64,000 bases of DNA from a phage: the NCBI GenBank assembly GCA_025812035.1, contig GCA_025812035.1_4719.1. One strand, written 5' to 3'. The translations under genes and the position numbers were made by a program. This document shows positions 3,392-14,618 of this stretch, in pieces. Position 1 is the stretch's first letter. Every line of letters starts with the position of its first letter. The notes below the pieces were generated by a model, which worked only from the letters and a program-made list of their open reading frames with translations, was not told where the DNA came from and made no database searches.

Positions 3392-6004
3392 TTATGCGTC
3401 CGGCGTAAAATCAAAAGGAACGTCCGTACGAATGATATCATAGCGTTTTCCTAAGAAATAGAACTCCTCGGGGACCTGACCGGGAACAATACTATCGCCG
3501 ATGAACTGCGGATATGCCCAGATGTACTGAGTGAGTCCTTCGAACATATCCAGGTTATTTGCGTGGTTACCCATGATACGTTTCCAAAGTTCGCGTTTAT
3601 ACGGTGTTTTAACATCGAACCCATAAAGCGGTGCAAGATCCACACCAGGCACAAATCCCAGGTAGTAGTGGATCTGACTGACCGGGAAACCAAGCGTATC
3701 TCGCGGAATGGTGATCGCTTGCTCAGCCTTGGTGACATGCGTCTCAATAATCCAGTCGTAGCACTCCGAATAGAACCGATCGAATTTCTCTGGATTATAC
3801 CACGCTTTGGGAAGATTCAATTTCTCCGTAAAATCGTTCGACATGATCGTCGGCAAGAAAGGAAGTATGCCCGTCTTTATTTGCGTGTATTTTGATTTTA
3901 CGCGATTTACCAGATTCCAACAAGCATAACCGAGCTGATCGTTACAGAACTCAACGTACAGATCGTAATCCCCTCCCGATAATGGATTATTAATATCACC
4001 GATATCAGCTGCGTATTTGTTGGGGTATCGTGTATTAAATGCCAGTTTGGTTTGGTAATCGTAAATGCACGGTTTATTGTTCTTCGTGTTAATCCACCAC
4101 CATGGCTCACCTACCTGCACGCAAATGTCCTGGACATGAGGATAGATAATATCAGCAAATGCTGTTAACACATCCCCTAACCACGCCATCGCATGTTGGT
4201 TACATGGAGACAACAACCAAGACGGTGGCGTATATCCGGTTGCTGCTATGTTTCCTTCCCAATCCTGCTGCGCCCACTCGAATGGACACGCTGTACTCAT
4301 CAATTCGTAACTTAAACTGATGGTGACAGAGAAATGGTGTTTTGCGGCGTATGCAGCAAAGGCTTCATGCCATGCAATACAGGGTGGATTTAGTACATCT
4401 GTGGTGTTCACCAGTAACTTACCCGCACTTGGTGTCCAGACAGTATCGTAGAAATGCGACATTCCGACATAGTGCACTAATTCATCCTGATAACCCGCAT
4501 ACACCAGGTTTTCAAATACACGCTCTGGCGTGATGTTGTAATGGTCATCATAAGCGGTTATTGCACGAAGCTCATGCGGTGTGCAACGGTGACGATTAAC
4601 CGTCATTTCCTGGTACACCCCATCGATAGGAAGAATCTCGATGGTTAAACCAAGATCGATCGGCGTTTCCAGATAGGTCGTTTCTGTAGCACCTTCTTTA
4701 TAATGTCGAGAACTCATGCTGAACATCAACGATGTTACCGATTCAAGTTCGATGGGTTCGTCAGCATAGAACCCCGCCATCGCATCGTTGAAATCGATCG
4801 TCACGGTCGCACTCGTACCGTCTTTAGAAACGTCGGTTGCATATCGGGTTAATGAGATATACTGGCGACTATCGTCTTTGTGAACGACGGTTAAAACCGG
4901 TGGGTTTTCAGTATCAGCAAAATTACGCTGGTCGCCAGTAAACGTGATCTTCGCTTTAAAGATCAAACCGAATAACGACGTCATGGGGGCATACGCAACG
5001 CAACCATGATCCAGTGTATCCGTTGTTCGCCATTCTATCCCGACCAACCCGTTAGCGGTATGACATCGCATATACGCGTTAAGTACCATGTCTTCACTGA
5101 CAACCGCGAAGTTCTCTGTTGACTGACCGTTGATAATCCAATACATCGGTTGCCAAAGATTACGAGTACCTTTTGCATAGCGGTAGGTTGGCGCGCCTTT
5201 TGGGTTGCCGTTATTAAGATGGAATACAGCAGTACCTTGGTAGTGATCGTTCGTATTAATCGGAACGCTGTAAGCGTCACCGATATCCGTACGTTCGACC
5301 TTAGCGACTGTTGCGTTTTCAAACAGTCCACGTAGCGTAGGAAGACCAATATCTTCAGGCGCGTTTTCTCGACGAATCGCATCCGCGATGCGATGGGCTA
5401 AGGCGGGGTAAATGACTTCACCTTGTTGCAGGTTCGCAAGCCCTGCGAAACGATCGGGGTCGATGCCAGCAATCAATAACTCGACATCACCCTTCGTTCT
5501 ATCGTCGCGGAGGTATTTCAGTCCAGTAAGATCGAGATGTCGAATTAACGACAACAGATCGTACTTACGGTTTTCAACAGTCAGTTCGAGATCACCTGCC
5601 CAAACCAAACTTCCCTCATCCGCCGCTACTCTAACGGATTGTCGGCCTGTGGTAGATGTTGTTGTCGTTTTATTTAATTGCTCTTGTAGGAAGTCGGTTG
5701 CGAGGTCAAAGGCAACGCCGTAACGGTCAGCGACGGCTTGCATGATTTCACGTAACTGGGTATCTTCTTCAATGATAATCTTGACAGGTATTCCCAAGAA
5801 CGCTTTAGTGAGGTCCCGCTTAACCATCGAGACGAATACGGATTTGTAATACCGGCTTCCATCTTTCCCTTTAAAAAGAATGGAAGTTGTTTCGGGTGAC
5901 GATAGAACACGTGCAAATTCAACATCGTCGAATGTAAGAGAAAGTCCGTTTTTCTCGTTGGTTAATCTTAATATTTCATTTTGCGCGGTTTCATGTAACT
6001 TCAT
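3392..6004 (-). CDS. tail fibre/spike protein, member of shared-N-domain family
   Basis: 870 codons; N-terminal ~170 aa (NEILRLTNEKN...FDDVEF...YKSVFVSMVKRDLTKAFLGIPVKII...YGVAFDLATDFLQEQLNK) is homologous to the N-termini of ORFs at 12028-12555, 12712-14466 and 51773-53227; large unique C-terminal domain. Confidence 0.6.
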   Translation of the reverse strand: MKLHETAQNEILRLTNEKNGLSLTFDDVEFARVLSSPETTSILFKGKDGSRYYKSVFVSMVKRDLTKAFLGIPVKIIIEEDTQLREIMQAVADRYGVAFDLATDFLQEQLNKTTTTSTTGRQSVRVAADEGSLVWAGDLELTVENRKYDLLSLIRHLDLTGLKYLRDDRTKGDVELLIAGIDPDRFAGLANLQQGEVIYPALAHRIADAIRRENAPEDIGLPTLRGLFENATVAKVERTDIGDAYSVPINTNDHYQGTAVFHLNNGNPKGAPTYRYAKGTRNLWQPMYWIINGQSTENFAVVSEDMVLNAYMRCHTANGLVGIEWRTTDTLDHGCVAYAPMTSLFGLIFKAKITFTGDQRNFADTENPPVLTVVHKDDSRQYISLTRYATDVSKDGTSATVTIDFNDAMAGFYADEPIELESVTSLMFSMSSRHYKEGATETTYLETPIDLGLTIEILPIDGVYQEMTVNRHRCTPHELRAITAYDDHYNITPERVFENLVYAGYQDELVHYVGMSHFYDTVWTPSAGKLLVNTTDVLNPPCIAWHEAFAAYAAKHHFSVTISLSYELMSTACPFEWAQQDWEGNIAATGYTPPSWLLSPCNQHAMAWLGDVLTAFADIIYPHVQDICVQVGEPWWWINTKNNKPCIYDYQTKLAFNTRYPNKYAADIGDINNPLSGGDYDLYVEFCNDQLGYACWNLVNRVKSKYTQIKTGILPFLPTIMSNDFTEKLNLPKAWYNPEKFDRFYSECYDWIIETHVTKAEQAITIPRDTLGFPVSQIHYYLGFVPGVDLAPLYGFDVKTPYKRELWKRIMGNHANNLDMFEGLTQYIWAYPQFIGDSIVPGQVPEEFYFLGKRYDIIRTDVPFDFTPDA

Positions 6005-6026
6005 TGAAAACCTCAGCCTTTTAGAA

Positions 6027-6668
6027 TTAGATGTACTGCTTACCGCCCACGAAGGAAGTCAGCCAGTTCCCTGAAACAAGCTGCGATACCCAACCGGGTA
6101 CCGCTCTACCATTCTGGCTCATGATGTTACCACACCAACCAGGGAATCCGGGACGGATATAATAGAAAGTTAAATTGTAGAGATGGCAATTCCACACCGC
6201 AACGTTATGTTTACCAGAAACCGCTTTAAAGACAAACGCAACGGGTAAAGGCGACGATAGCAATTCGGTCACAGGGACGGCTGACCAATTCGCATTCGCG
6301 TTCCACGGTTGCCAGGTATGGCTACGCGAGTCGCAAAATACGTTACCGTTGTTACCGCGCCCACCCGCATTCCACCACAGCGACGGACTCATGTTCTTAA
6401 GTGAGGTAAATTGCTGCGGTGGAATATTAGGAATAATAACAGGGTTGGTACCTTGCCCATGTTTCTTTTCTTTTGCGTTCACATACCCGCTTATCGATTC
6501 GAGGTATTTGACACCAGGATAATTGTTCTGGACTTGTGTCGCAATATCACGAACATCAAACGTCCAGCAGATCATGGTGTTGTAGTAAGCATCGGTGTTG
6601 TCGTACCATGCGTTACCATCTTGTAAACGTGCGCCACTATTCGGTGTTTTATCTGTGTTTATAGCCAT
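6027..6668 (-). CDS. hypothetical protein, paralog sharing C-terminal domain with 6780-7496
   Basis: 213 codons; C-terminal RPGFPGWCGNIMSQNGRAVPGWVSQLVSGNWLTSFVGGKQY is near-identical to the C-terminus of the next gene. Confidence 0.5.
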   Translation of the reverse strand: MAINTDKTPNSGARLQDGNAWYDNTDAYYNTMICWTFDVRDIATQVQNNYPGVKYLESISGYVNAKEKKHGQGTNPVIIPNIPPQQFTSLKNMSPSLWWNAGGRGNNGNVFCDSRSHTWQPWNANANWSAVPVTELLSSPLPVAFVFKAVSGKHNVAVWNCHLYNLTFYYIRPGFPGWCGNIMSQNGRAVPGWVSQLVSGNWLTSFVGGKQYI

Positions 6669-6769
6669 GGTATTGTCCTATACGTTGACGGTTGAGATGT
6701 CGGATGCCGGATGTGTGTTGTCATCCGGTGGTACGTACAGAAACACCCACAGATAAAACAGTAGCTTCT

Positions 6770-6794
6770 CTAACTTCAATTAAATTGAAGTTAG
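6770..6794. repeat. perfect 12-bp inverted repeat with 1-nt spacer (CTAACTTCAATT-A-AATTGAAGTTAG) centred on the stop codon of gene 6780-7496
   Basis: read directly from sequence; AT-rich palindrome straddling a gene end. Confidence 0.4.
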
Positions 6795-7496
6795 ATATTG
6801 TTTACCTCCAACAAACGACGTTAACCAATTACCTGAAACAAGTTGCGATGCCCAGCCAGGCACTGCCCTACCGTTCTGGCTCATCACGTTACCTGCCCAT
6901 CCCGGAAAACCCGGCCGGAAAATATATACTTGAATATGTGTTAAAGCGTTATCATTACCACCGCCAACAGCAACGTTACGACTCCCAGATGACGGGAAAT
7001 ATTCTTTTAAGAACAGAGGATCGGTTGCTAATAAAGATGCGGGCCAAGGGTTCGCGGATGCATCAACATCGAATTCGGTCCATCGCCATTTACGTCCCGT
7101 GTCGAACCATGTCGATGTACCGCCTCCACGCACTGCAAGATTGCGTGCGTCGCGGGCATTGTAAATTGATTCGATGTTACGCCACCCACCTTTTGCGGCG
7201 TTTGCCGCATAGCAAATCGCATTACCACCATTCTTCTTTTCGTAAACAGTTCGTTTGATATGAACACGATCGATGAACGCTTCACCGTATTTGTTGACGA
7301 GCGTTTGTGCGATATCACGAAGATCGTGCATGTGAAAAGCGATGTCTTCGTTATGGAACCATGTTGTCGGGTTCCAGACGGTACCGTTTGGTTCGGCACA
7401 CATCGATCGGATATTGTTGCGTTGATTAACCGCGATAAAACCCATTGTATACCTCGTTCCTATTCTCAAAAAGGAAATTTCATACGATGACGCCAT
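6780..7496 (-). CDS. hypothetical protein, paralog sharing C-terminal domain with 6027-6668
   Basis: start revised to ATG at 7496 (MASSYEISF...), 5 nt downstream of the GGAGGAG arm of the hairpin at 7501-7530; the ORF-track start at 7532 lies inside that hairpin. Confidence 0.5.
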   Translation of the reverse strand: MASSYEISFLRIGTRYTMGFIAVNQRNNIRSMCAEPNGTVWNPTTWFHNEDIAFHMHDLRDIAQTLVNKYGEAFIDRVHIKRTVYEKKNGGNAICYAANAAKGGWRNIESIYNARDARNLAVRGGGTSTWFDTGRKWRWTEFDVDASANPWPASLLATDPLFLKEYFPSSGSRNVAVGGGNDNALTHIQVYIFRPGFPGWAGNVMSQNGRAVPGWASQLVSGNWLTSFVGGKQYLTSI

Positions 7497-7500
7497 AGCA

Positions 7501-7530
7501 GCTCCTCCTTCCCTTACGGGTTGGAGGAGC
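7501..7530 (-). promoter_or_regulatory. GC-rich stem-loop, repeat copy 2; its 3' arm GGAGGAG lies 5 nt upstream of the ATG at 7496
   Basis: 28-nt core identical to the 2368 and 41224 copies; in the transcript the hairpin 3' arm overlaps the Shine-Dalgarno position. Confidence 0.45.
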
Positions 7531-7538
7531 ATACTTAA

Positions 7539-8045
7539 TTACTCGCTGATAACCTCAACGGAATTGGGATCAGCGATCATCGCACGGTCAGTAGAACAAT
7601 TGAAGAAGACCATGCCGACACCATCGCCGTTCGAGTTCAGGGTTGAACTTACGTAAGACAGGGTTGGTTTATTCATGCGGTAGAAGCGTTCGCTGGTAGC
7701 GGTATTGAACCCCAGATCAACGTAGTCTTTCACCGTGGTATACAGCTGCGTGGATTCGAAGACGGTTACCGGAGAGTCAACGGTAAATTGACTACCTTCA
7801 TCCACAACCAGAACCTTATCGTTCCAGATTTCAGTGGTTGAAAACTTCGGTTTCCAATGTTCGAATTCCTGGGTTGCACCCCAGCAAGAATACACAGCAA
7901 GATTGCTGTTCTTCTCAACAGGTTTCAAACCCACCAGTTGTGTCAGGTCTTTATCCAGGTTCGGTAAGCCTTCCAGCGTAGCACACCCGCCCAGAGAAAG
8001 CACCATCAACATACCAAGAACGATCGCGCAAAGTTTCTTCATCAT
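7539..8045 (-). CDS. putative lipoprotein
   Basis: N-terminal MMKKLCAIVLGMLMVLSLGGC gives a signal peptide plus lipobox-like LGGC. Confidence 0.5.
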   Translation of the reverse strand: MMKKLCAIVLGMLMVLSLGGCATLEGLPNLDKDLTQLVGLKPVEKNSNLAVYSCWGATQEFEHWKPKFSTTEIWNDKVLVVDEGSQFTVDSPVTVFESTQLYTTVKDYVDLGFNTATSERFYRMNKPTLSYVSSTLNSNGDGVGMVFFNCSTDRAMIADPNSVEVISE

Positions 8046-8086
8046 CGGATTTCCTTATATGTTAACGGAAGTGATTTCCATAGTAA

Positions 8087-8503
8087 TTACATAGCAGCAG
8101 GAAATTCCGGCCAATCGATATTTGGTGCAGCATCGGTATCGACAGCCGTCACGGCATCGATGTAATCCAAAACAGCATTAAGTTGAGTCGTTTCTTCCGG
8201 AGTCAGTTTTCGCCCAGCCCGTAATTTTAACTGAATAAGATCGATGGAAGCCAGCGCTGAATCAATCTTTGATTGTTTTATCTGTTCTGCCTCGGCGACG
8301 AGATCTTCGTGCTGCCGCTCGGGTTCAGGAGGCGCGATAAACTCGCCATCCGAGTATAACCAACCTATTCCAGGTGACACAGTTACCGCATCGCTAATAC
8401 TAACCAACTGTTGATTGTCGGATATATTGAGCTCTGCCTCACCATCGTAAACGATCGTGTTTACTACTACCCCATTTTCAATAACAGCGTATGATGTACT
8501 CAT
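8087..8503 (-). CDS. tail fibre assembly chaperone (Tfa-like)
   Basis: start revised to ATG at 8503, overlapping the fibre gene stop (TAATG); C-terminal AVLDYIDAVTAVDTDAAPNIDWPEFP resembles the conserved tail of Tfa chaperones; lies immediately downstream of the fibre gene. Confidence 0.6.
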   Translation of the reverse strand: MSTSYAVIENGVVVNTIVYDGEAELNISDNQQLVSISDAVTVSPGIGWLYSDGEFIAPPEPERQHEDLVAEAEQIKQSKIDSALASIDLIQLKLRAGRKLTPEETTQLNAVLDYIDAVTAVDTDAAPNIDWPEFPAAM

Positions 8504-11500
8504 TACATAAACTCCTCGATGATGCAAATCCCATTAGCACCACGCCCACCAGGCTTAGCGCTTCCTGAGAAAGAGTTGTCGTAAGCACCACCACCACCCG
8601 AACCAGGCGCGAGGCCGTTGTGGGCGGTGCCAACACCGGCGCGACCGCCACCGCCCCAATATGACGCACCCCCACACCCACCGACAGTAATAGTACCGGC
8701 TTGTCCGTCGCCACCGTCTCCGCCCGGAATGCGTATATCCCCGGTATTAGGTACGCCCCCATAGCCACCACCAGTGTTTGTGATAGTTGTTTTTCCTGCG
8801 CCTTGCCCGCCGGGAGCGGTTAGCAGGGATGCAAATTTACTATCCCCACCCCCGTTTCCAGATGTTGCTCCAGAGCCGCCGGAACCACCAGAACCAATTA
8901 CAACAGAATAACTAGTAGCTGATATCGTTATAACCGAAATTACTGTTCCACCGGCCCCACCGCCAGCACCAAAAAACGTTTCACCGTTGGAAAAAGCCTG
9001 GCAACCACCGCCACCGCCTCCACCACCGGTTATTGTTACTCTAATCCGTTTTGTTCCTTGTGTTGGGGTGTACGTCCCTGACGATGTGAAAACACGCATG
9101 TTCAGTAAACGTCCGACATATCCGCTAGAATCGGCTAAACCAAGATCTTTAGCTGCTAACGTGATATTAGCTGTACCGTCAAACGGTTTACCGTTAATCG
9201 TGCGCGCAGTCTGCAACTTCGTCGCCGTTGCTGCGTTTCCTGATGTATTCTGGTTTCCCGCGGCGTTAACACCCGGCAGATTGATGTTCGCACTACCGTC
9301 GAAAGACACCCCACCAATGGTGCGAGCTGTTTTCAGTTTTGTCGCCGTGGCAGCATTACCGGTCGTGTCTTGGTTACCGGTGGTGTTTACCCCAGGCAGG
9401 TTGATATTTGCCGTTCCGTTAAATGAAACACCACCAATCGTCCTTGCCGTTTGCAACTTCGTTGCGGATGCCGCATTCCCCGTGGTGTTTTGGTTACCCG
9501 TTGCATTCACGCCCGGGATACTATCCTTAGATGTGTAGATCTGTGCCCATTCCGACCAGTTCGAATCGGTTGCATCACGACGTGAACGTAGGTAAGCTGG
9601 AGCGTGTGCGCCCGCGGTACCTGACCACCCAATAAAGATCTCGCCTTCACCGACCGATGAAGCGCCTTTAAGATGAATGACGTTACCATAAGCGGTAGGA
9701 TATCCGTTATTGTACGCTTCATACATCTGGATGCCCGCATTGCTGCCCTGAGCTGTGTTAGCTAAAGCCGTAACACGACCTTTGGAGGCGAGAGCGGTAA
9801 TACTGAAGCTAATGTCCTTAGTACCGTCAAAGGCGACCCCATTAATCTTCCGTGCTGTTTGGAGTTTCGTGGCAGTAGCCGCATTACCAGAGGTACTCTG
9901 ATTACCTGCTTTGTTCACGCCTGGTAAATCAATGTTGGCTGTTCCATCAAAGGACACGCCCCCTATGGTTCTCGCCGTCTGAAGTTTTGTTGCTGAGCCA
10001 GCGTTTCCGGAAGTGCTTTGATTACCTGCCGCGTTGACACCCGGTAGGTTAATGCTAGCAGAACCATCAAAAGAAACTCCACCTATCGTGATCGGTGTTT
10101 TCAATTTCGTGGCTGTCGCGGCGTTACCCGTCGTATTCTGATTACCGGCTGCATTGACGCCAGGTAATGCGATATCGGCCGTACCGTCGAACGCGACACC
10201 ACCGATTTTACGGGCGGTTTGTAGCTTGGTCGCTGTAGCCGCGTTACCGCTGGTATTTTGCGTGCCCGCTTTATTTACACCGGGAAGATCGATGTTGGCA
10301 GAACCATCGAATCTGACGCCACCTATCGTTCTTGCAGTAGCAAGTTTAGCTGCTGTGGCTGCATTATTGCCCACTTTTAGCCAATCATCCCATGGACCAT
10401 CCTGGCCGTTCCACGACGCCGTTAAACCACGTACGTAAATATTGCCTGTACGTACAGTGTACCGTTGCATCCCACCGAATTGTCCGGCTGGGAGTACTTC
10501 AAGGTAACCTGCGGCATTTGCTTCAGGGAAATTGTGGGCGGCGTCCGCGTTCGTCGCTATTGGTTTAGACCAAATACCCACAGACGCTTCAACCGGACCG
10601 TAGGTATTCAGATTTGCGTCAGCAGGGAGTGGTCCTCGGAAACGCAGTAATTGTATTGGCGTTAACCCCAACGTTCTTTGCATTCCCTCGACACTCGATT
10701 GCGATAAAAGTGCCCGAGCTGTCGACGTGATGGTCGCTAAAGCAACCTTGTCGACTCCAGTGAAATAAGGGAATTTGTTCGCTGATGTCGCTAAACCTGA
10801 AAAGGCGGTCAGTAATGCATTAAGGGGTTGCTTCCCAGCTAACGCTTTCGTTACTGTCGTTGAGAAATTAGGATCACTTCCTATAGCTCGAGCCAGCTTA
10901 TTAAGCGTATTTAGCGCATCTGGAGACGAGTCAATCAACGACGTGATCGCACGCATCACAAATTCCGTGTTGGCAATCTGTCGACTGCTATTGTTAATTG
11001 CTGCGGTGGGTGTTGTTGGAGTACCGGTGAATACAGGACTATTAAGATCCGCCTTGAGAGCAATGAGGCGTTTAAGTGCTTCGACATCGACTTTCAGGTT
11101 TTCCCACCCGATGAGAGAACCGTCTCCGTTGGTATGATAACGGTTATACCAGAAGTCGCCGTTAACACCCCAAAAGAATATACCTTTCTCTTCGTTTTGC
11201 GGGCCGGAACTATTTCGCGATGAGCCGATATATTTGATTTCAATAAGACCCTCAAACACGACTCCCGGGATTATTTTGTTGTCTCCAGCTGACTGTACTA
11301 CTTGATAAACTCCAGGCGTTGCTGCTCTAACCCATGTTAAGAATTCCGTTATTCCAGCGGTGCCACTGAAACGCTTAACGTCGGTAAGTATCGCCCCATA
11401 ACCGAACATACCCGGTAACGCAACTCGTCCGCCGGTACGGTCACGAATATTTGAGGCAACGACGGGCAGCTTTTTACGAACGCTGTTAACCGCCTTAGGT

Positions 11501-12021
11501 GTGGCTGCTTTTGTCTCGTCATCGCTATCGATGGCGTTGCTCAGGATGGTCAGTCCTCGCTTATCTATGGTTGCGTCGGGAAGAAACGCGTTATCCAACA
11601 CTTTAAGCTGTACAGCGCTCGTGTTACTAACAACGAGATACATCTGGCAGTTAAGAACGCTGCTTGCGCCTTCAGTAGGAACAGGCTTGTATCTTTCCGG
11701 TGCGCTGCAGACAGCGACCAGAACACCTCGATCGTCATACAAGCCGATTTCGCGTACCCAGAATCCACCTTGGTTTACAGGAATAATACCCTCAACAATA
11801 ATCCTGGTTGTGTCGTCTGCGTCAACGCGGATGTTAGAAACTTCCCCGCGATAAACTTCGTGTACAAGGGCTGTTTGACTAGCATCGGGAGTTGGTGTAG
11901 AGCCGTTACCGTCACCAACGGCAAAATGTGTAATTTTTAGTTTCTCGCCGTCCGGAAGTAGTGCGGCGGCGATACGTTCAGTACCTTTATCGGTAATGAC
12001 CGTTCTATATGTTGTACTCAT
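8503..12021 (-). CDS. long tail fibre protein (P2 gpH-like N-terminus, fibre repeats, Gly-rich tip)
   Basis: 1172 codons; N-terminus MSTTYRTVITDKGTERIAAALLPDGEKLKITHFAVGDGNG...ALVHEVYR matches the P2 H/lambda-type fibre N-domain; two arrays of a ~40-aa repeat (GNAATATKLQTARTIGGVSFDG.ANI.LPGVN); Gly-rich C-terminal region. Confidence 0.85.
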   Translation of the reverse strand: MSTTYRTVITDKGTERIAAALLPDGEKLKITHFAVGDGNGSTPTPDASQTALVHEVYRGEVSNIRVDADDTTRIIVEGIIPVNQGGFWVREIGLYDDRGVLVAVCSAPERYKPVPTEGASSVLNCQMYLVVSNTSAVQLKVLDNAFLPDATIDKRGLTILSNAIDSDDETKAATPKAVNSVRKKLPVVASNIRDRTGGRVALPGMFGYGAILTDVKRFSGTAGITEFLTWVRAATPGVYQVVQSAGDNKIIPGVVFEGLIEIKYIGSSRNSSGPQNEEKGIFFWGVNGDFWYNRYHTNGDGSLIGWENLKVDVEALKRLIALKADLNSPVFTGTPTTPTAAINNSSRQIANTEFVMRAITSLIDSSPDALNTLNKLARAIGSDPNFSTTVTKALAGKQPLNALLTAFSGLATSANKFPYFTGVDKVALATITSTARALLSQSSVEGMQRTLGLTPIQLLRFRGPLPADANLNTYGPVEASVGIWSKPIATNADAAHNFPEANAAGYLEVLPAGQFGGMQRYTVRTGNIYVRGLTASWNGQDGPWDDWLKVGNNAATAAKLATARTIGGVRFDGSANIDLPGVNKAGTQNTSGNAATATKLQTARKIGGVAFDGTADIALPGVNAAGNQNTTGNAATATKLKTPITIGGVSFDGSASINLPGVNAAGNQSTSGNAGSATKLQTARTIGGVSFDGTANIDLPGVNKAGNQSTSGNAATATKLQTARKINGVAFDGTKDISFSITALASKGRVTALANTAQGSNAGIQMYEAYNNGYPTAYGNVIHLKGASSVGEGEIFIGWSGTAGAHAPAYLRSRRDATDSNWSEWAQIYTSKDSIPGVNATGNQNTTGNAASATKLQTARTIGGVSFNGTANINLPGVNTTGNQDTTGNAATATKLKTARTIGGVSFDGSANINLPGVNAAGNQNTSGNAATATKLQTARTINGKPFDGTANITLAAKDLGLADSSGYVGRLLNMRVFTSSGTYTPTQGTKRIRVTITGGGGGGGGCQAFSNGETFFGAGGGAGGTVISVITISATSYSVVIGSGGSGGSGATSGNGGGDSKFASLLTAPGGQGAGKTTITNTGGGYGGVPNTGDIRIPGGDGGDGQAGTITVGGCGGASYWGGGGRAGVGTAHNGLAPGSGGGGAYDNSFSGSAKPGGRGANGICIIEEFM
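9157..9516 (-). repeat. in-frame tandem repeat array (3 units, ~120 bp each) inside the tail fibre gene
   Basis: protein residues ~836-955 repeat the motif PGVN..GNQ.T.GNAA.ATKL.TARTIGGVSF.G.ANI. Confidence 0.7.
9787..10371 (-). repeat. in-frame tandem repeat array (~5 units, ~120 bp each) inside the tail fibre gene
   Basis: protein residues ~551-745 carry the same ~40-aa fibre repeat. Confidence 0.7.
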
Positions 12022-12027
12022 GGCGTT

Positions 12028-12555
12028 TTATCCCGGGTAAATAGTGATGGTGTCACCAACGAGGGTTGTGGCACCAGAGTAAAGATACGCTGGTGATGCT
12101 TCACGTTGGTTAGTCACGGTAAGATTCATTTGCCCACGCCAAACCATGGAGGTATTCGCGATGGGAATCAAGATCTTCTTGGAAGTATCGTCACGAAAAT
12201 TAATGGTGGTAGCAAGGGTAGCTGAATCAAAATCAACGTCAGGTTCAAAGATGAACCCGTATTGATCTGAAATAGCTTGAATGACCGCTCTTATAGTTGT
12301 TGTTTCAACCGACTCCAAAACGATTTTTATCGGTATTCCTAGAAACGCTTTCGCGATATCACGTCGTGTGTAAGTAATAAAACTCTCACCACACCACCTT
12401 GTTCCTTCATTTGCTGTGACGATCACTTTTGCCCTGTTAGCACCAGAACTCCCATCCAGGGTTAAAGTGAGATCGGAGTTACTGAATACGCTACTGTTAC
12501 GTTGGTTTATCAACGCAATCAGTTCGTCCTTCCACGGCGGGTAAAGTGAACGCAT
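12028..12555 (-). CDS. fibre-family N-terminal domain protein (short paralog)
   Basis: start revised to ATG at 12555, preceded by GGAGGAGGG; 175 aa aligning only to the shared N-domain of the fibre paralogs (WKDELIALINQRN...YTRRDIAKAFLGIPIKIV...YGFIFEPDVDF). Confidence 0.5.
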   Translation of the reverse strand: MRSLYPPWKDELIALINQRNSSVFSNSDLTLTLDGSSGANRAKVIVTANEGTRWCGESFITYTRRDIAKAFLGIPIKIVLESVETTTIRAVIQAISDQYGFIFEPDVDFDSATLATTINFRDDTSKKILIPIANTSMVWRGQMNLTVTNQREASPAYLYSGATTLVGDTITIYPG

Positions 12556-12669
12556 AAGCGCACCCTCCTCCAACAATCAATTAAAATGCAAAACACCTCG
12601 AAACCAGAGTGCGATTCGAAGCAAGCGTAAACGGCCTGAACGACCGCATAAAATTCCGCGCATATTACC

Positions 12670-12711: not shown

Positions 12712-14466
12712 TTATGCTGCTACGTATCCAGGCCAACGTTCTCTTGGCCAGTTTGTTGCACCCTGTCCGACGGTGTCTTTACCAGAAATGACGTTACTTA
12801 CATCCCATCCACTCAGATCCTGATTGAATGCGGTGTTCTCGCGCATCATGAGATCGATCTTACGTAGTGAGTGGGTATTCCAACCAGATATGTCTTGGTT
12901 GAATGCTTTATTGTAGGCAAACATGTTAGACACGTTCTGTAATTTTGACGTGTTCCAACCACTGATGTCGCTATTGAACGACGTGCTTGAGAACATGCTG
13001 CTCGCATCAACAAGATTGTCGGTTTTCCAATTAACCACTTTATCGCCGTCAAATGCATTGCTGCTGCTGAACATAAAACTCATATTGCTAGCTTTGGACA
13101 CATCCCATTTATCTAACCCTTTACCGACGAACTCATTACATGCCGAGAACATCCAGCTCATATCGGTAACCCGACTCACGTTCCATTTGCTGAAGTCAAG
13201 GTTAAGTTTCTGACACCCTAAGAAGGTCTTATACATGTTGGTGATGCGACTAACATCCCACTCTTGGATGTTAGGGTCGTTAAGCGTCGTTAAGTAGTTG
13301 AACAATGTCGCTAACGACGTCCATTTCTCTGGAATCCGGTTTGGTACCGTACGAAGCGATGCAAGGTTGTTGGTTGACGGAGAGCAGAACATACCGTTAT
13401 CCCAATTTACGATTTCCGTAATTTTGGACCCTTTGATCGTCTGAGTGGTATTACCATCTTTCACTATACCCGTAGCAACGATGGTATATTCACCGGTGCC
13501 TGCATAATCGTGGGCGTAGGCACCGTTACTTGAGGTCTCCGTTACTTTATTCCCATCACCCCAATCGATATTAACTTTATCCCACCCACTTAGGTTGAAC
13601 TGTACTTTGCCTCCGGTAGCTTTTAGGATGTATTTACCTCCATTGTCGGTAAAATAGCAGACAACCATTGAACCGTACAGATTACCTATCCGCCAATCAT
13701 CCTTTTCTGTCACTGCGATTTGCGCTAAGCCACGCTGTACGAAGAGTACTGTGCGGTTCTCGTCAGTCTGTAATGTGGCTAATGCTTGGGCCTTATCGTC
13801 CTCGCTAATTTCATTAGCGCTCACTAAAACGCTTAACATTCTTTCGAAGTATTCGATGGGTAATTGACGTCCTACAGACTTATCAACCGACGGTTCAGCA
13901 AGATCGCCCAACGCTGCAGTGGTGGCCAGCATCAACGAACCCTTGGTCATATCTGTTTCTTGTAGGTAGTGCAGTCCTGTAATCTGGTACGCTTGAATAA
14001 TCGTAATCAGGTTCAGCGTATCGTTAACGACCTGTACTTGTAAATGTCCAGACCATACGTAGCTGCTTTCGGCAATTGGTAGTTCGACCGACTGGATACC
14101 TGATGTTTCAAAGGTGATCTTCTTGTTAAGATCGGTTTCCAGGAAATCAACAGCGAGGTCAAAATTTATACCGTACTTCTCAGCGATAGAATCCACGATG
14201 TTTCTGAAAGCAACGTCATTATTTACGATGAAACGTAATGGGATTCCTGCAAACGCTCTAGCAATGTCTCGACGAACATACGTGAGCGACTGCTCGAAGA
14301 AATAGGGGCTACCATCTCGCGGTTTAATGGTCACCTGACATACTTCGGGATATTCAGCTGGGATTAACGACACGAATTCAACATCGGATTCTTTCAATGA
14401 AAGCATATTCTTCCGGTTTACTAATGCCAGAAGATCGGCTTTCCAACCAGGATAAACTGTAGACAT
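12712..14466 (-). CDS. tail fibre-like protein with PKD-like segment and DUF285-type repeats
   Basis: start revised to ATG at 14466 (GGAGTG upstream; MSTVYPGWKADLLALVN aligns with paralog N-termini); IDWGDGNKVT...YAHDYAGTGEYTI is PKD-like; C-terminal repeats of type FNQDISGWNTS..M..MF are DUF285/BspA-like. Confidence 0.6.
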   Translation of the reverse strand: MSTVYPGWKADLLALVNRKNMLSLKESDVEFVSLIPAEYPEVCQVTIKPRDGSPYFFEQSLTYVRRDIARAFAGIPLRFIVNNDVAFRNIVDSIAEKYGINFDLAVDFLETDLNKKITFETSGIQSVELPIAESSYVWSGHLQVQVVNDTLNLITIIQAYQITGLHYLQETDMTKGSLMLATTAALGDLAEPSVDKSVGRQLPIEYFERMLSVLVSANEISEDDKAQALATLQTDENRTVLFVQRGLAQIAVTEKDDWRIGNLYGSMVVCYFTDNGGKYILKATGGKVQFNLSGWDKVNIDWGDGNKVTETSSNGAYAHDYAGTGEYTIVATGIVKDGNTTQTIKGSKITEIVNWDNGMFCSPSTNNLASLRTVPNRIPEKWTSLATLFNYLTTLNDPNIQEWDVSRITNMYKTFLGCQKLNLDFSKWNVSRVTDMSWMFSACNEFVGKGLDKWDVSKASNMSFMFSSSNAFDGDKVVNWKTDNLVDASSMFSSTSFNSDISGWNTSKLQNVSNMFAYNKAFNQDISGWNTHSLRKIDLMMRENTAFNQDLSGWDVSNVISGKDTVGQGATNWPRERWPGYVAA

Positions 14467-14618
14467 AAGCACTCCAATCATGGGGCGGTAACCGCACCCA
14501 ACGGTTAAATTGTCGATTATGGTCGTTGCTGATAAGACGACCATAACCAACGATGTTTAATATGTAGTATATTGATATCATGACGTTATGGGGATCTAAG
14601 TCATACCATGGAGACGGC

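Follow-up and report, generated by a model that had tools for sequence, protein, structure and literature searches.

The stretch of DNA analysed here (the window: 64,000 nucleotides (nt) of phage DNA, GenBank assembly GCA_025812035.1, contig GCA_025812035.1_4719.1) carries on its minus strand a tail fibre gene, 8503..12021, which encodes a protein of 1172 amino acids (aa) in a single open reading frame (ORF) and is the orthologue of gp090 (1324 aa) of Escherichia phage Goslar. The gene is a tail fibre of the P2 gpH/P1 S type from a Goslarvirus, and our results make it very likely that this fibre combines a shaft organised as a ladder of modules, from which whole modules are deleted at short homologies, with a tip that is exchanged as a cassette. 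The assignment to the P2 gpH- and P1 gpS-type family comes from the PF12571 domain at the N-terminus and the tail fibre assembly (Tfa) gene directly downstream; moreover, the protein matches tail fibre families of PHROG with E values down to 3e-223. The Goslar orthologue, gp90, has been detected in virions by mass spectrometry (preprint 10.64898/2026.04.21.720040).

The domains of the fibre, all encoded on the minus strand, are arranged as follows. The N-terminal tail-collar fibre domain (aa 1-141; 11599..12021; Pfam PF12571 Phage_tail_fib, E 2.3e-44) is by homology with the P2 gpH-type fibres the putative end that attaches to the baseplate. It is followed by one Phage_fiber_2 motif (aa 151-181; 11479..11571; PF03406, E 4.3e-10), a single stretch which differs from the 40-aa units of the shaft. 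Repeat finding and a hidden Markov model (HMM) of the unit located the first array, composed of a partial unit (aa 553-579) and four full 40-aa units (aa 580-739), at 9805..10365. The second array contains three 40-aa units (aa 836-955; 9157..9516), and the end of the last of them is the point where alternative tips are joined. Between both arrays lies a non-repeat spacer domain of 96 aa (aa 740-835; 9517..9804), which has no match in Pfam or NCBIfam, and the AlphaFold2 model of the spacer with its flanking units (aa 700-875) was unusable, with a predicted local distance difference test (pLDDT) score of 32. We also considered that the two non-repeat domains could be related 'knob' domains, an idea that was left unsupported (BLASTP E 0.079 over 10 residues, nothing in NCBIfam). 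The C-terminal tip domain (aa 956-1172; 8506..9156) consists of a beta-sandwich of the tumour necrosis factor (TNF)-like type and a glycine-rich part, and matches Gly_rich_2 (Pfam PF21722) at aa 980-1169, with an E value of 2.3e-12 and 47.8 bits against a cut-off of 24.3. The next gene downstream, tfa (8087..8503, minus strand), encodes a tail fibre assembly chaperone of 138 aa (Pfam PF02413 Caudo_TAP, E 1.2e-20), and its ATG overlaps the stop codon of the fibre gene. When the full-length fibre was compared with the PDB, only Bxb1 gp4 was matched, at aa 356-413.

These positions agree with those of a first-pass annotation of the same sequence, which had placed the second array at 9157-9516, exactly where we found it, and the first at 9787-10371, within 18 nt of the limits given above. 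The Gly-rich region it had delimited, 8572-9030, corresponds to aa 998-1150 and forms the core of the tip, with 37% Gly compared to 9-14% in the rest of the protein.

A repeat search of the gene found seven in-register copies of the 120-nt (40-aa) unit, spaced 120 nt, with the consensus PGVNxAGNQxTSGNAATATKLQTARTIGGVSFDGxANIxL. A consensus of two units matched the fibre gene by tblastn with E values of 1e-38 to 1e-42, and nothing else in the 64-kb window. The units had been described as near-identical. While the 120-nt period is real and the units are alike as protein (65-85% pairwise identity in the window), their DNA is just 61-71% identical, the longest in-register exact run between window units does not exceed 11 nt, and Tandem Repeats Finder (TRF), run on the window sequence, did not report the arrays. 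With such values, the arrays do not resemble a contingency locus or a hypermutable tandem repeat. The same was seen elsewhere: the units were 58-80% identical as DNA in every allele examined, and units 3 and 6 of allele P0007 are 100% identical as protein and 79% identical as DNA.

Between the window units, the proportion of differing synonymous sites (pS) was 0.88 and that of nonsynonymous sites (pN) was 0.15. The use of the same codon for shared residues corresponded to the random expectation from codon usage in six of the eight alleles tested (P 0.18-0.84). It was below the shuffled sequences in the window (0.299 vs 0.334 +/- 0.016, P ~0.004-0.008) and nominally low in P0077 (P 0.03). The possibility that codon divergence between the units is selected, as an anti-recombination device, was rejected, since six of the seven other alleles were at the random expectation and only P0077 was low. 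The synonymous sites of the units are simply saturated. Codon divergence at or near random, together with the high pS, therefore indicates that the duplications which built the arrays are old, and that the likeness of the units as protein has been held by purifying selection. When alleles sharing one architecture are compared, no part of the fibre is more conserved than the arrays, in which 9-11% of columns vary; their pN/pS, 0.02-0.10, is the lowest of the protein.

To compare unit numbers we used 120 homologous proteins obtained by searching a large protein collection, and counted their units with an HMM built from the window units. Many of these homologues come from short-read assemblies (Logan, ENA), and many lie on contigs of 233-249 kb from E. 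coli, Salmonella and Shigella samples. The first-pass annotation had proposed the arrays as sites of length variation, and this was borne out: repeat number is not uniform among the relatives. The first array contained 3, 4, 5, 6, 7 or 8 units, and the second contained 3 or 4, or 0 when it was lost together with the spacer. As a result, the proteins form a ladder of lengths with 40-aa steps (956, 996, 1091, 1132, 1172, 1212, 1252 and 1292 aa), to which the 1244- and 1324-aa forms add a 32-aa insert. The 956- and 996-aa alleles have lost the spacer together with the units flanking it. The same length classes recurred across independent samples, with 17 clusters at 1172 aa and 12 at 1252 aa. Parsimony on a neighbour-joining tree of the N-terminal 540 aa (117 sequences) required at least 35 changes in the first array and at least 18 in the second, counts which mix new events with recombination between alleles.

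Two other length differences were seen in this set. The first is an insertion or deletion of 27-32 aa upstream of the first array, present in Goslar gp090 at aa ~455-490 (L001:4287-8261, minus strand) and absent from the window protein. It is independent of unit number, and is seen in those homologues of 1199-1377 aa in which the first array begins near aa 567-572. The second is found in P0028 (1137 aa), which has a 35-aa deletion within the spacer relative to aa 741-775 of the window protein, and is the sole indel of the shaft seen that does not involve whole units.

The comparison with Goslar, which has 7+4 units compared to 5+3 in the window (the counts of the first array include the partial unit), shows where the units were joined. 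Unit 1 of the window is a hybrid, with its 5' half corresponding to Goslar unit 1 and its 3' half to Goslar unit 3. Unit 6 of the window, the middle unit of the second array, is also a hybrid, in which the switch from Goslar unit 8 to unit 9 occurs inside the 23-nt exact run that both have in common. Judged by their sequences, these hybrid units mark the in-register loss of two units from the first array and of one unit from the second. That so many homologues derive from Logan or ENA short-read assemblies raises the question of collapsed or expanded repeats, but an assembly artefact is hardly credible as the source of the different unit numbers, since exact runs between units are at most 34 nt and usually below 15 nt, so that assembly k-mers separate the units, the finished genome of Goslar itself differs from the window, equal length classes recur in many independent samples, and no indel breaks the frame or the register, the units at the junction being orthologous hybrids.

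Whole-unit indels were also mapped exactly between near-identical alleles. Between P0012 (1252 aa) and P0038 (1172 aa) there are 0 mismatches in 3519 nt and a single 240-nt indel; the identity at the junction is 8 nt, GATGGTTC, within the FDG motif. P0005 (1292 aa) and P0050 (1172 aa) are separated by a single 360-nt indel and 13 mismatches, and here too the identity at the junction is 8 nt, GGGGGTGT, within the IGGV motif. Around both mapped junctions, the unit copies are ~75% identical. The source samples of the paired alleles include GCA_958336805.1, GCA_958312855.1 and the runs ERR10505394 and ERR2368366. Overall, at least five whole-unit events can be distinguished among alleles with no more than 6 aa differences, and in them 40, 40, 80 or 120 aa were lost, or the event was inter-array. 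This last class corresponds to a deletion from a unit of the first array to a unit of the second, with loss of the spacer. Note that the pair P0040/P0096, with 59 DNA mismatches, is too diverged for an exact inter-array junction to be mapped.

The long alleles carry diverged units, with the 58-80% DNA identity given above, and therefore the recent length events are shown, on the evidence of the unit sequences, to be deletions and not fresh duplications. A freshly duplicated unit was not seen among the 120 proteins. The forms with seven or eight units in the first array, (7,x) and (8,x), have a periodicity of two or three units, and their unit 1 resembles unit 3 or 4 at 74-80% DNA identity. As read from these sequences, this periodicity represents the remains of old multi-unit duplications.

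The first-pass annotation had attributed the variation to unequal recombination between near-identical repeats. Classical, homology-dependent unequal crossover occurring at high frequency has whole-unit, in-register indels as its expected product, and Goslar units 7/8 and 8/9 do have exact runs of 23 nt, with the junction of the second array of the window inside one of them. However, units are just 58-80% identical as DNA in all alleles examined, the two mapped junctions have 8-nt identities within copies that are 75% identical, and the expected reciprocal product, the freshly duplicated unit, occurs in none of the 120 alleles. RecA-type exchange usually needs roughly 20-30 nt of identity, and 8 nt is far below this. 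The low DNA identities therefore largely refute crossover between near-identical repeats, and we consider this explanation improbable. Instead, the deletions probably arise by slippage or by short-homology recombination.

Once formed, the alleles appear to move between genomes. Within one allele pair, pS was ~0.06 in the N-terminal part and 0.46-0.67 in the arrays and spacer, so that it differs up to 10-fold between regions of the same gene. Moreover, the fibre genes of two of the contigs compared, L002 (3001-6759) and L003 (3001-6519), which carry the P0012/P0038 allele, are identical at 3519 of 3519 aligned nt, while their 3-kb flanks are 96.1% (upstream) and 99.0% (downstream) identical. 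An identical fibre gene amid diverged flanks suggests a recent transfer of the allele between genomes. The regional differences in pS and the contrast between L002 and L003 thus characterise the fibre gene as a mosaic that moves between co-circulating phages. Mosaic exchange between phages is typical of tail fibres.

The tip varies in a different manner. The first-pass annotation had presented it as a hotspot encoded by repetitive, GGT/GGC-rich DNA. That description of the DNA was not sustained: the Gly codons are mixed (29 GGT, 15 GGC, 10 GGG and 8 GGA), exact repeats reach 12 nt at most, and TRF reports just two marginal arrays (6 nt and 9 nt). As to a hotspot, the tip is indeed replaced, as a cassette together with tfa, whereas its length is constant, with exactly 217 aa in 69 of the 69 alleles that end in a Gly-rich domain. 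About 22% of its columns vary, mainly in the non-glycine segments. Its pN/pS ranges from 0.03 to 0.34, and no positive selection was detectable overall.

Two alternative endings were found among the relatives: 27 end in a Peptidase_S74 (intramolecular chaperone) module, and 21 in a third module ('GY') with no match in Pfam. In the S74- and 'GY'-type relatives, homology with the window protein extends through the last unit, to ...FDGxxNITL, and no further. The tfa gene was found downstream of the Gly-tip alleles examined and is absent from the one example examined of each of the S74 and 'GY' types, which have a 168-aa gene directly after the fibre. The fixed junction, and the presence of tfa only with the Gly tip, therefore indicate that the Gly tip and tfa act as one cassette, spliced at the last unit. 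Switching of tips by inversion, as in P1 (cin) or Mu (gin), was also considered and rejected: the inverted repeats in 5500-12600 amount to one weak 17-nt pair, with none flanking the tip, and the 64-kb window contains no second copy of the tip, of the units or of the cassette; no search aimed at an invertase gene was made.

The AlphaFold2 model of the tip, obtained from 38 sequences, had a pLDDT of 58 and a predicted template modelling (pTM) score of 0.62, with a confident beta-sandwich and with Gly-rich loops of pLDDT <50. Its best Foldseek match in the PDB was 7ypx_A, the fibre gp24 of cyanophage Pam3 (E 6.3e-6, template modelling (TM) score 0.62, probability 1.00), followed by the tail-tip proteins of mycobacteriophage Bxb1 and by the TNF-like/glycine-rich (TG) domains of ALK/LTK. 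At the sequence level the PDB gave no link between the tip and Pam3 (phmmer E 4.8, and no match in a profile search), so the link was made by the fold search alone. The model thus predicts for the tip the fold of Pam3 gp24, a beta-sandwich with a glycine-rich lattice. The Pam3 fibre has a glycine-rich distal domain and a Tfa-like chaperone, and its distal loops have been proposed, not demonstrated, to bind the receptor (PMC9608196). By analogy, it is plausible that the tip of the window fibre is a receptor-binding domain which would contact the receptor, since it has the Pam3 gp24 fold, lies at the terminus, is served by a Tfa chaperone of its own and is exchanged as a cassette. It would then be, also plausibly, a specificity module that varies by replacement and not by length.

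Related tips occur outside this lineage. Gly_rich_2 domains 69-74% identical to the tip are present in many enterobacterial chromosomal proteins (P0121-P0240), mostly from E. coli. Many of these have 308 aa, and several sources label them 'carbohydrate kinase'. By sequence, they look like misnamed prophage tail fibre tips or fragments. If they are prophage tips, exchange of tips between temperate phages and a lytic jumbo phage lineage would be implied.

A different role for the Gly-rich domain, as a structural or assembly cap in a virion whose host recognition depends mainly on other fibres, has some arguments in its favour. The cryo-electron microscopy (cryo-EM) preprint on Goslar proposes the DUF7941 fibres and collar filaments for host recognition, and left the tail fibres unresolved. 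In addition, the overall pN/pS of the tip stays below 0.35, and the Gly tip is present in phages from E. coli, Salmonella and Shigella assemblies. We nevertheless find this role unlikely, because the fibre ends distally in this domain, which has the tip fold of Pam3 gp24, two unrelated tips replace it as a cassette at an unchanging junction, the columns that vary are in non-glycine segments, and tips ~70% identical to it are carried by enterobacterial prophage fibres. A distal position, cassette exchange, variable non-glycine segments and tips common to prophages are the usual marks of a receptor-binding module.

Whether the different shaft lengths matter to the phage is a separate question. 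The variation could be real and functionally neutral, any number of modules being tolerated and the ladder resulting from deletion bias and drift. Consistent with this, the recent events are all deletions, and unit number has no evident link to the type of tip, since 5+3 units were found with all three. Unopposed deletion, however, should erase the long alleles, yet arrays of seven and eight units, with anciently diverged units, persist in many lineages. Moreover, the units are under the strongest purifying selection of the protein, although neither this nor the persistence of long arrays proves that length is selected. Neutrality is therefore possible, though we regard it as doubtful. The converse, that the ladder is adaptive, we can put forward only with considerable hesitation: deletion at short in-register identities would steadily yield shorter fibres, and selection by the thickness of the host surface (O-antigen, capsule), together with recombination between co-circulating phages, would keep both the short and the long forms. 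If this were true, the arrays of the shaft would slowly tune the reach of the fibre, while specificity would be left to the tip cassette, in a lineage encountered mainly in persistently infected bacterial isolates.

Taken with these alternatives, a shaft that loses modules at short homologies and a tip that is exchanged whole account best for the data, and we propose the following course of events. The N-terminal collar domain would anchor the fibre, the shaft contains the two arrays of old modules around the 96-aa domain, and the distal TNF-like and glycine-rich domain would fold with the help of the Tfa chaperone encoded downstream. Purifying selection keeps the units alike as protein while their codons have diverged fully, so that the in-register identities available in the arrays are short (8 nt at the mapped junctions and no more than 23 nt elsewhere) and lie in conserved motifs. 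At those identities, recombination of an illegitimate or short-homology type, occurring rarely, or slippage during replication would remove whole units, and the same process may remove everything between a unit of the first array and a unit of the second, keeping both the frame and the module register. Older duplications of two and three units would have made the long forms, and homologous recombination between co-circulating phages would spread the alleles, generating a population ladder of fibre lengths. By analogy, each unit would add a fixed increment of length to a trimeric, beta-structured shaft, and the length of the fibre would presumably affect adsorption. Specificity would change mainly when a different tip is brought in entire at the boundary of the last unit, along with its chaperone where needed, and point mutations in its non-glycine loops would contribute as well. 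Of this course, the data directly show the anatomy, the ladder of lengths, the exact junctions, the deletion direction of the recent events and the exchange of cassettes.

Several points weigh against this proposal. Event rates are estimated from comparisons between samples, not from reads or from events within a population, most of the relatives come from the short-read assemblies of Logan and ENA, and the exactly mapped junctions are two. The profile of the unit, searched against the PDB, matched only the C-terminus of Dec, with an E value of 0.07, so the increment of length per unit depends on analogy. The model of the tip is of moderate quality, with pLDDT <50 in the Gly-rich loops, and receptor binding by the Pam3 fibre is likewise only proposed (PMC9608196). 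Finally, Goslar virions carry other candidate structures for host recognition, the DUF7941 fibres and the collar filaments (preprint 10.64898/2026.04.21.720040). The tail fibre may thus not be the main determinant of host range.

The lineage of the window was established as follows. The sole phage record with nucleotide similarity is Escherichia phage Goslar, a chimallivirus jumbo phage, which is 89.3% identical over 52% of window positions 1-25000 and 82.7% identical over part of the fibre gene. The gene order around the fibre matches that of Goslar. This similarity, the common gene order and the full-length alignment with gp090 therefore place the window in a Goslarvirus (Chimalliviridae, nucleus-forming jumbo phages), an assignment by genome similarity and gene order that probably applies to the whole window. 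The nearest fibre allele, P0006, with 97% aa identity, lies on an ENA contig of 238,287 bp. When viral contigs were searched for the DNA of relatives, the matches were Goslar itself and fibres of other phages at 45-47% identity; genome contigs gave no confirmed locus. Until 2025 one isolate of the Goslarviruses was known, and hundreds of genomes have now been found in Escherichia, Salmonella and Shigella assemblies (PMC12768965). Published Goslarvirus genomes number 237.

The genes around the fibre show variation of their own. Three DUF7941 genes flank it (3392-6004, 12028-12576 and 12712-14550, all on the minus strand), one of which adds the N-terminal domain of a non-contractile tail sheath and a TIM-barrel domain, and another adds DUF285. 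A 2026 cryo-EM preprint on Goslar (10.64898/2026.04.21.720040) proposes that DUF7941 proteins form a host-recognising 'fibre cloud'. The second gene upstream of the fibre varies among the relatives: it encodes a DUF7941+DUF285 protein of 584-612 aa in the window (12712-14550, minus strand) and in L019 and L020 (57-1812), and a protein of 1198 aa with no Pfam match in Goslar, L002 and L003 (1-2261 in the last two). Downstream, a 250-aa ORF with no Pfam match (6780-7532, minus strand) sits between the 213-aa and 168-aa genes. Its counterpart has 255 aa in L019, and at the same place Goslar, L002 and L003 have a gap of ~180 nt and no gene.

Compared with known systems, the closest is Goslar gp090 (YP_009820775, annotated as tail fiber protein), which by tblastn is 77% identical across the full window protein, with equal domain order and an equal Gly-rich tip. 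The neighbourhood, where compared, is also alike, with a DUF7941 gene upstream and the tfa, 168-aa and 213-aa genes downstream. The two proteins differ in the two additional units of the first array, the additional unit of the second and the 32-aa insert present in Goslar, which account for 1324 vs 1172 aa. P2-like fibres have the N-terminal Phage_tail_fib domain in common with the window protein (40-51% identity over aa 1-453/470, tblastn), and the shaft of P1 S is built of the same kind of unit (47-52% identity over aa 320-965). P1 gpS, P2 gpH and Mu gpS also resemble it in the downstream Tfa chaperone and in having a modular C-terminus that passes from one phage to another, unrelated one. 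P1 and Mu switch their tips by site-specific inversion (cin/gin). In contrast to these two, the window fibre belongs to a lytic jumbo phage, not a temperate one, and its alternative tips occur only between genomes. Mosaic tail fibres, with motifs common to P2, P1, Mu, lambda and T4, were reportedly described by Haggard-Ljungquist in 1992 and Sandmeier in 1994, and it has long been established that receptor-binding modules at the C-terminus are exchanged along with their chaperones.

With Pam3 gp24/gp25 (PDB 7YPX, 7YFW; PMC9608196) the window fibre has in common a distal TNF-like beta-sandwich with a glycine-rich lattice and an adjoining Tfa-type chaperone. Sequence identity is only 25%, however, and the Pam3 fibre is minimal, with a helical shaft that has no repeat arrays. 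The gp38 proteins of the T-even phages and S16 similarly have conserved glycine-rich motifs among variable segments at the receptor-binding end (PMC9608196; preprint 10.64898/2026.04.02.716166), but gp38 is a separate protein on the tip of gp37, whereas the domain of the window fibre, a member of Pfam Gly_rich_2, is part of the fibre polypeptide itself. A gp38-type adhesin was accordingly rejected as a candidate, the domain being fused and no gp38 or S16 structure appearing among the Foldseek matches. The C-terminal spike of phage L Dec contains one copy of the unit motif, NAETADKLSTARTI...FDGSANV; the match is weak (E 0.07), it is one copy rather than an array, and no direct match with gp34 was obtained. 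Others have modelled the Dec C-terminus on the beta-helix of T4 gp34. The unit may be equivalent to the repeats of T4 gp34, which we could not confirm directly.

Variation of this fibre is not described in the two surveys that expanded the genus or in the preprint on the Goslar structure, whose cryo-EM left the tail fibres unresolved. New here is the set of unit numbers, junctions and tip cassettes for the Goslarviruses, a clear but unsurprising addition, as it is otherwise a familiar mode of phage fibre variation. Together they map the parts that vary: the number of modules in the shaft, three types of tip, and the point, always the end of the last unit, at which tips are spliced. Such a map would be useful for predicting host range and for engineering, since the last unit would offer a site for exchanging the tip, with tfa where needed, and the number of modules could be raised or lowered in register. 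Furthermore, identities of 8 nt suffice for whole units to be lost from protein repeats even when their DNA is saturated with differences, and the potential of a gene for recombination should not be judged from repetition at the protein level alone.

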